This document shows, piece after piece, positions 11,134-11,492 of a DNA stretch of 64,000 nucleotides. The translations under genes and the position numbers were made by a program. This DNA is from Escherichia coli. Its GTDB lineage: Bacteria > Pseudomonadota > Gammaproteobacteria > Enterobacterales > Enterobacteriaceae. The stretch lies in NCBI RefSeq assembly GCF_024223415.1, contig NZ_CP100500.1, one strand, 5' to 3'. The notes beneath the pieces are model-generated. The model saw only the letters and a program-made list of their open reading frames with translations, ran no database searches and was not told where the DNA came from. Positions within the stretch are counted from its first letter, which is position 1. Every line of letters starts with the position of its first letter.

Positions 11134-11367
11134 ATGTTGAGCACAACAACATCCCACGACAGCGTATGGTTGCGTGACGACGATCCCCTGATCGACATGA
11201 TTTTCATCACCAGTTTCACCGGCATGACCGACAAATGGTTCTACCAGCTGATGAGCGAAGGCAGGTTCCCGAAGCCCATCAAACTGGGCCGCAGCAGCCG
11301 CTGGTACAGAAGCGAAGTGGAGCAGTGGATGCAGCAGCGCATCGAAGCATCACGGGGAGAAGCATGA
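11134..11367 (+). CDS. alpA: AlpA-family phage/island transcriptional regulator (HTH)
   Basis: 77 aa MLSTTTSHDSVWLRDDDPLIDMIFITSFTGMTDKWFYQLMSEGRFPKPIKLGRSSRWYRSEVEQWMQ, classic AlpA pattern. Confidence 0.8.
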   Translation: MLSTTTSHDSVWLRDDDPLIDMIFITSFTGMTDKWFYQLMSEGRFPKPIKLGRSSRWYRSEVEQWMQQRIEASRGEA

Positions 11368-11492
11368 AAGGTATTGTGATACCGGTTCGCTGGCAATGTG
11401 CAAACTGCCGGCGCTGGTATTGTGGTAATCCCCCCTGCCCCTGGTGCTGGCGACCTGCTGCACCGTCTGTCATTCCTCATCCTTCGCTGTAA
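11364..11492 (+). CDS. small Cys-rich protein (zinc-ribbon-like, 42 aa), start overlaps alpA stop (ATGA)
   Basis: MKGIVIPVRWQCANCRRWYCGNPPCPWCWRPAAPSVIPHPSL; five Cys in CxxC...C...CxxC spacing; GGGAGA upstream. Confidence 0.3.
   Translation: MKGIVIPVRWQCANCRRWYCGNPPCPWCWRPAAPSVIPHPSL

Follow-up and report, generated by a model that had tools for sequence, protein, structure and literature searches.

The stretch of Escherichia coli DNA analysed here, 64,000 nucleotides long and referred to as the window, carries an alpA gene whose stop codon overlaps the start codon of a small open reading frame (ORF) (Table 1). The alpA product matched Phage_AlpA (PF05930) with 41.6 bits against a gathering cut-off of 21, and thus belongs to the AlpA family. 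At the E. coli locus GF60, which is 99.9% identical to the window, PGAP has named the gene 'AlpA family transcriptional regulator' and calls no CDS between it and the next gene. The junction put forward in a preliminary description, an ATGA that joins the TGA of alpA to the ATG of a 42-codon ORF, was confirmed by direct reading, and the final codons of alpA (SRGEA) contain the ribosome-binding motif of the small ORF. No sigma-70-like promoter was detected between positions 10300 and 12300, which fits a single transcript spanning alpA and the small ORF.

The product of the small ORF, MKGIVIPVRWQCANCRRWYCGNPPCPWCWRPAAPSVIPHPSL, comprises 42 amino acids with a net charge of +5 and a pI of 9.4. 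Its cysteines occupy positions 12, 15, 20, 25 and 28 in the pattern CxxC-x4-C-x4-CxxC, and CxxC-x9-CxxC occurs a single time in the whole window when all six frames are counted. Past ...CWR, the tails vary in sequence and length among copies, giving rise to proteins of 30, 37, 42, 50 and 51 aa.

Table 1. Features at the alpA locus of the window
Feature	Position	Strand	Remarks
alpA	11134-11367	+	AlpA-family winged-helix regulator or excisionase-type gene, 77 aa; Pfam PF05930
Shine-Dalgarno-like GGGGAG	11354-11359	+	4 nt 5′ of the small-ORF ATG, within alpA codons
ATGA start/stop overlap, alpA / small ORF	11364-11367	+	read from sequence
Small ORF	11364-11492	+	42 codons, TAA 11490-11492, unannotated
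Predicted zinc-ribbon core W10-x-C12-x2-C15-x3-Y19-x-G21-x3-C25-x2-C28	11391-11447	+	two CxxC knuckles 9 residues apart
Variable C-terminal tail PAAPSVIPHPSL	11454-11489	+	not conserved
GC-rich hairpin, arms ACCGGTGCCGG / CCGGCACCGGT	11503-11540	+	between small-ORF stop and GTG of the next gene
Downstream YfjJ-like gene	11567-12085	+	PGAP CDS in GF60, GTG start

The hairpin downstream of the small ORF consists of perfect arms of 11 bp and an inner 4-bp stem (minimum free energy −37.6 kcal/mol, z −3.4). It has no T-run, was not called as a terminator and is not a canonical one. In the S115 lineage of E. coli, one arm position is altered on both sides (C>T with G>A) and a second one has become a mismatch. 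A conserved hairpin or terminator 3′ of the small ORF was not found in other genera; the hairpin of the window is lineage-specific.

Conservation of the small ORF and selection on its frame

Relatives were collected via the AlpA protein alone, so that the resulting sample of 80 loci from one-genome-per-species contigs is unbiased towards the small ORF. An intact ORF with CxxC-x9-CxxC was present within 360 nt 3′ of alpA on the + strand at 17 of these 80 AlpA-anchored loci, and about six others contained recognisable damaged copies. Three control zones of equal size, namely the opposite strand after alpA and both strands of the 360 nt before it, each yielded the motif at none of the 80 loci. 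When the peptide itself was used in a tblastn search, the same motif was retrieved directly 3′ of alpA in about two dozen loci from many genera. Among the genera possessing the ORF are Yokenella, Kosakonia, Siccibacter, Hafnia, Trabulsiella, Klebsiella and Serratia.

The intact copies at the AlpA-anchored loci are separate ORFs of 36 to 59 aa, each with its own ATG and its own stop codon. Their starts in other genera lie between −7 and +20 nt relative to the alpA stop, with one at +280, and a G-rich motif (GAGGAG, GGGGAGG, GAGGG or GGGGGG) is located 4 to 9 nt 5′ of the ATG in every intact copy. Equivalent motifs also precede the start in metagenomic copies of the E. coli type.

Selection statistics were calculated for a 24-codon core in 15 to 16 copies, which retain the protein motif at DNA identities as low as 50-65%. 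The pooled in-frame values were 0.68-0.70 for pS, which is saturated, and 0.21-0.22 for pN, with a pN/pS of 0.31. Four other frames had ratios of 1.1-1.9, the two other forward frames accounting for 1.5 and 1.1. One antisense frame, which shares its third positions with the ORF frame, reached a ratio of 0.38 but contains stops in 7 of 15 sequences. At codon positions 1, 2 and 3 the mean pairwise difference was 0.21, 0.22 and 0.51, respectively. Conservation of the ORF and its cysteines downstream of alpA homologues and a synonymous-site pattern had been named beforehand as checks on the reading of this frame as a gene. Both came out in its favour, with position, start signals and both CxxC kept across many enterobacterial genera and with the differences concentrated at the third codon position.

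The position controls, the in-frame selection and the antisense stops exclude a chance frame, a non-coding element and an antisense gene, and the small ORF is almost certainly a genuine protein-coding gene under selection. That the frame is open by chance within non-coding, GC-rich sequence and owes its conservation to something else, such as a regulatory site or an antisense gene, could be argued from the shortness and missing annotation of the ORF and from the long antisense ORFs overlapping it (e.g. 11241-11480 on the minus strand), but the probability of this is negligible given a third-position pattern and a low pN/pS that are specific to the ORF frame, the interruption of the antisense frame of similar ratio in nearly half of the homologues and the retention of amino-acid motifs at such low DNA identity. 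A leader peptide or uORF was also rejected, as the peptide sequence itself is under selection.

Among 5426 complete E. coli genomes, 2457 (about 45%) contained matches of 80-90% identity to the initial 93 nt of the ORF, at up to six places per genome and with 3235 copies in total, and nearly all of these matches lie under no annotated CDS except the end of alpA. PGAP almost never calls the small ORF. A word-indexed protein search with the 42-aa peptide, the index being coarse for this family, returned one match, a 42-aa hypothetical protein of E. coli with 81% identity. The family profile had matches in no more than 23 clusters when run against 1.84 billion representative proteins, indicating that the family is rarely called by gene callers. 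Metagenomes were scanned for the 17-mer CGCTGGCAATGTGCAAA, and 62 matches were genuine E. coli-type copies. All 62 have kept the ATGA overlap; 48 possess all five cysteines, 8 carry C15Y and the remaining 6 are disrupted by a frameshift or in another way.

At two loci from E. coli S115 (L002, 4467-5219) and GPEC505-623 (L003), 84% identical, an extra base after ...CTGCTG creates a fused ORF of 250 aa with the YagK/YfjJ-like gene. PGAP still starts the downstream gene at an internal GTG there, and names the homologue in GPEC505-623 'YagK/YfjJ domain-containing protein'. Most copies of this fused lineage carry C15Y in the first knuckle.

On the strength of these 250-aa in-frame ORFs, the ORF of the window might be regarded as the N-terminal part of the YfjJ-like gene, split by a 1-nt frameshift that arose by mutation or sequencing error or is used in programmed frameshifting. 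The same fusion was found in 6 of the 62 metagenome copies, and in the window the frame of the downstream gene extends back without a stop at least as far as GTG 11444, the first of its start codons. We nevertheless consider a split gene very improbable. A stop codon lies 2 to 31 codons past the last cysteine in each of the 17 intact copies from other genera and in 56 of the 62 E. coli-type copies, the small ORF and the YfjJ-like gene are separated by two further genes in other genera, and the start assigned to the downstream gene by PGAP is GTG 11567. Moreover, C15Y is present in five of the six fused copies, which marks theirs as the decaying lineage. As all other copies and genera terminate soon after the ribbon, we read the fusion as a derived accident in a decaying lineage, and the window does not contain a frameshifted long gene. 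The small ORF as the N-terminus of the downstream gene was rejected, being true of this one E. coli lineage only.

Relationship to Zn_ribbon_11

In an alignment of 29 family members, W10, C12, C15, C25 and C28 are invariant and R9, G21 and P26 nearly so. Residue 19 is usually Y, with F in some members, and both Y19 and G21 are invariant in an alignment of 15 members. The preliminary description had pointed to five cysteines in zinc-ribbon-like spacing. All five are present in the window and the CxxC knuckles are conserved, but some family members have A, S or G in place of C20. Because C20 is not invariant, the metal site is assigned as a C4 zinc ribbon and not as a five-cysteine site, with zinc binding predicted. 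All 29 members are basic (net charge +3 to +12, pI 8.9-11.0). Family members are 30 to 61 aa long, stand alone without a DUF7828 part and have a variable N-terminal arm rich in Lys and Arg.

AlphaFold2 with the family alignment predicted a beta-hairpin core with strands at residues 9-11 and 18-20; mean pLDDT was 87 for the block of residues 11-20, 81 for residues 21-30 and 73 overall. A Foldseek comparison of this model with the PDB gave nothing significant (best E 4.3), and a sequence profile search of the PDB nothing below E 0.06, as is expected for a knuckle pair of 20 residues.

The window peptide did not match any Pfam, NCBIfam or PHROG model, including Zn_ribbon_11 at E ≤ 10. Zn_ribbon_11 (PF11682, 'probable zinc-ribbon') was matched by 12 of 15 family members at E ≤ 10, the best value being 1.8e-5, and three matching members scanned singly scored 13.1-20.3 bits, below the 24-bit gathering cut-off of the model. 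When the small proteins were compared by hhalign with the Zn_ribbon_11 domains of their neighbours (E 3.4e-5, probability 72%, 30 columns), W, both CxxC, Y and G were aligned, and the same columns are invariant in the domains of the neighbours. Judged by these comparisons, the small protein is related to Zn_ribbon_11 as a divergent protein that stands alone, and falls outside formal membership of PF11682.

The two share W-x-C-x2-C-x3-Y-x-G-x3-C-x2-C with the same spacing of nine residues between the knuckles. Zn_ribbon_11 forms the C-terminal domain of enterobacterial DUF7828 proteins, whose genes share islands with the small ORF and, in other genera, come next after it within one operon. Whereas Zn_ribbon_11 ends proteins of about 130-140 aa, the small protein consists of the ribbon alone at 30-61 aa. 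It is also strongly basic, usually has an extra cysteine in place of the H or Q of 'YHG', and lacks the conserved T-G-x-x-S that follows the Zn_ribbon_11 domain.

A few RefSeq records name such small proteins 'putative zinc ribbon protein'. Examples from Serratia fonticola (WP_440980294.1, 55 aa) and Citrobacter koseri (WP_110494735.1, 61 aa) belong to the same family and have 29-38% identity to the window protein. The C. koseri gene starts 2 nt past the alpA stop, and a YagK/YfjJ gene comes after it. Unlike these named relatives, members of the E. coli subfamily that overlap alpA by ATGA have hardly ever been annotated.

The Ogr/Delta activators of P2/P4-type phages and their satellites are likewise small Cys4 zinc proteins, about 70-80 aa in length, from elements that also carry an AlpA/Vis-type gene. 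The resemblance would be one of analogy only, as cysteine spacing, size (Ogr/Delta being larger) and operon differ, and none of 15 family members matched Pfam Ogr_Delta at E ≤ 10. The gene is a largely unannotated addition to the small zinc-ribbon proteins related to Zn_ribbon_11 and not a new type of system.

The island module and the state of its copies

In other genera, the module consists of a YagK/YfjJ-like gene (inovirus Gp2-type), alpA, the small zinc ribbon, two DUF7828+Zn_ribbon_11 genes and a YfjJ-like gene, whose product contains ...FLQQAVDHYPRL.... The DUF7828+Zn_ribbon_11 genes 3′ of the small ORF are tandem paralogues encoding about 130-140 aa with an N-terminal CxxC...PWFEH motif; such pairs were seen at 3012-3434 and 3422-3841 of locus L006, at 457-1333 of L206, and at L013, L015, L018 and L029. 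In the window, the small ORF is directly followed by the closing YfjJ-like gene, and the two DUF7828 genes of the ancestral module have been lost. This loss explains why DNA homology to most E. coli copies ends near 11454, just past the second knuckle, and why the tails differ.

Several paralogous genes of the inovirus Gp2 or YagK/YfjJ-like kind flank alpA, at 9690-10013, 10464-11069 and 11567-12085 of the window and at 994733-995464 of the GF60 record. The first of these looks truncated at 107 aa and has a sub-threshold REP_ORF2-G2P match. Upstream of it, in the AT-rich gap between a YfjI-family gene and the next Gp2-like gene, lies a perfect tandem repeat (8856-8945; 8-nt unit TCACTCTA, 11.2 copies, 100% match). 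With many copies of a unit that is not a multiple of three, it resembles a slippage-prone tract. On the other side of alpA, a UvrD-type helicase gene (12212-15057) is split into an ORF of 377 aa and one of 571 aa with an overlap at 13342-13345, and the copy in GF60 is marked as frameshifted by PGAP. It is followed by a gene for an Rpn-family recombination-promoting nuclease (15126-16115). With its IS elements and the frameshifted helicase gene, the island of the window is mosaic and decayed.

A tblastn search of 50,697 phage records gave no match. Some large plasmids from Klebsiella and other Enterobacteriaceae contain the module (the matches listed are of about 210-480 kb), and it belongs to integrative islands rather than phages.

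Damage by C15Y, frameshifts, nonsense codons or lost starts affects about a quarter of the sampled copies. The cross-genus set includes several copies with a lost start codon, a nonsense codon at the last cysteine or a frameshift. At two loci, from Citrobacter amalonaticus (L060, 2678-2806) and Rosenbergiella (L012, 2711-2851), the zinc-ribbon frame is identical to the alpA frame and lies directly behind the TGA. Neither has an ATG, GTG or TTG start, the former having ACG where relatives have ATG, and they represent either start-codon loss or candidate stop-codon read-through. In one E. coli-type lineage, represented by L005 (2480-2860) and 12 of the 62 metagenome copies (L085-L204 set), alpA itself is broken by a short duplication and a stop (...QWK*), and the small ORF behind the interrupted gene stays intact (MKRVVMPVRWQCAKCQRWYCGTRPCPWCWRYSRSSSC).

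The family is under selection and single copies often decay, as is usual for cryptic islands; the copy in the window is intact. It would be conceivable that the family is real and that this particular copy is an inert relic, intact only because it has not yet decayed. The absence of the two DUF7828 genes found in other genera, the break in homology to most E. coli copies just past the zinc ribbon, the mosaic island with its IS elements and pseudogenes, and the damage in 14 of the 62 E. coli-type copies together with the existence of further frameshifted clusters are all consistent with such a relic. We regard it as unlikely, given that the start, the ATGA overlap and all five cysteines are kept in 48 of the 62 copies despite variable tails. 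Furthermore, comparison of the window with the core of locus L004 gave a pN/pS of 0.19, by which selection appears to be ongoing within the E. coli lineage, mostly without DUF7828 genes.

Probable coupling to alpA and possible role of the small protein

Recombination directionality factors of the AlpA/Vis/TorI/Xis type control excision and transcription of islands and prophages (PMC8844411). The upstream gene encodes a bona fide AlpA-family member. The proposal that the small ORF is coupled with alpA and made together with it is supported by the universal ATGA among E. coli-type copies, by the Shine-Dalgarno motif inside alpA and by the close spacing of the two genes elsewhere. A start at the upstream stop, a ribosome-binding motif inside the upstream gene and the conservation of this arrangement were all found, as befits a coupled pair at the level of sequence. 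The small protein is thus probably co-translated with AlpA. Both ORFs would be read from the same mRNA, and ribosomes finishing alpA would go on to translate the small ORF. With the Shine-Dalgarno motif in the last codons of alpA and the ATG overlapping its TGA, the small protein is expected whenever AlpA is made, in an amount that would roughly track that of AlpA.

The high positive charge suggests that the small protein may bind nucleic acid or an acidic protein surface. It could then act as an accessory nucleic-acid- or protein-binding factor in the island programme controlled by AlpA, in excision and/or gene activation. Based on gene order, the co-regulator role proposed in the preliminary description is plausible. 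Taken as a whole, a protein-coding C4 zinc ribbon that is made together with AlpA and may serve as an accessory factor in the AlpA programme is the probable and best explanation of the locus.

Whether the small protein works physically together with AlpA is a separate matter, for which we have a tentative expectation at best, somewhat below even chances. Adjacency to AlpA is kept across genera, which counts for a direct link. In one metagenome sequence (L206, 30-320; JGI metagenome Ga0487874_00184), AlpA and the zinc ribbon form a single ORF of 96 aa. Compared with L047, it looks like the product of a 1-nt deletion in the SRG codons that puts the TGA out of frame. This ORF is a natural fusion or a sequencing error and provides weak evidence for a direct link. 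AlphaFold2 modelling of AlpA joined to the zinc ribbon by a GS linker, with a paired alignment of 14 rows, gave a pTM of 0.39 and no confident joint arrangement. Many AlpA homologues occur without the small ORF, including the K-12 CP4-57 alpA, where none is found in the alpA-yfjI gap, indicating that the small ORF is not a general requirement of AlpA proteins.

The stronger version of such cooperation, in which the small protein is an obligate second subunit of this AlpA clade, held at a fixed ratio by coupling, and makes DNA or RNA contacts or recruits Gp2/YfjJ-like replication-type proteins, appears improbable. In the literature, we found no description of an AlpA-type system with a coupled zinc-ribbon partner, and nothing on the small ORF, PF11682 or DUF7828; the paper on SEN1998 of ROD21 concerns the recombination directionality factor only.

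The main functional alternative dispenses with AlpA as a partner. The small protein would be a micro-protein that mimics Zn_ribbon_11 and competes with or regulates the DUF7828+Zn_ribbon_11 proteins or the YfjJ/Gp2-like replication-type proteins, its position after alpA being an arrangement for expression only. Homology of the small protein to the C-terminal domain of the next two proteins of the ancestral module speaks for mimicry, as does the constant presence of YagK/YfjJ (inovirus Gp2-like) genes in the module. Yet the small ORF persists intact in E. coli islands without DUF7828 genes, its product is far more basic than the domain it is supposed to mimic, and adjacency to alpA is the most constant feature of all. 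We therefore hold mimicry to be rather unlikely and favour the accessory factor in the AlpA programme.

In summary, the small ORF is a missed gene and not a new kind of system, widespread in E. coli islands and almost never called by standard annotation. AlpA-type proteins have been studied as single-protein switches for the excision and activation of islands and prophages. A co-expressed product could confound alpA knock-outs through polar effects as well as complementation with alpA alone. If the small protein were an obligate subunit, a gene missing from annotation would be needed for AlpA to bring about excision or activation across a large class of enterobacterial islands. The uncharacterised Zn_ribbon_11 and DUF7828 families are now tied to a defined, conserved module, which offers a starting point for their function, and the small zinc-ribbon protein may be part of the AlpA switch.
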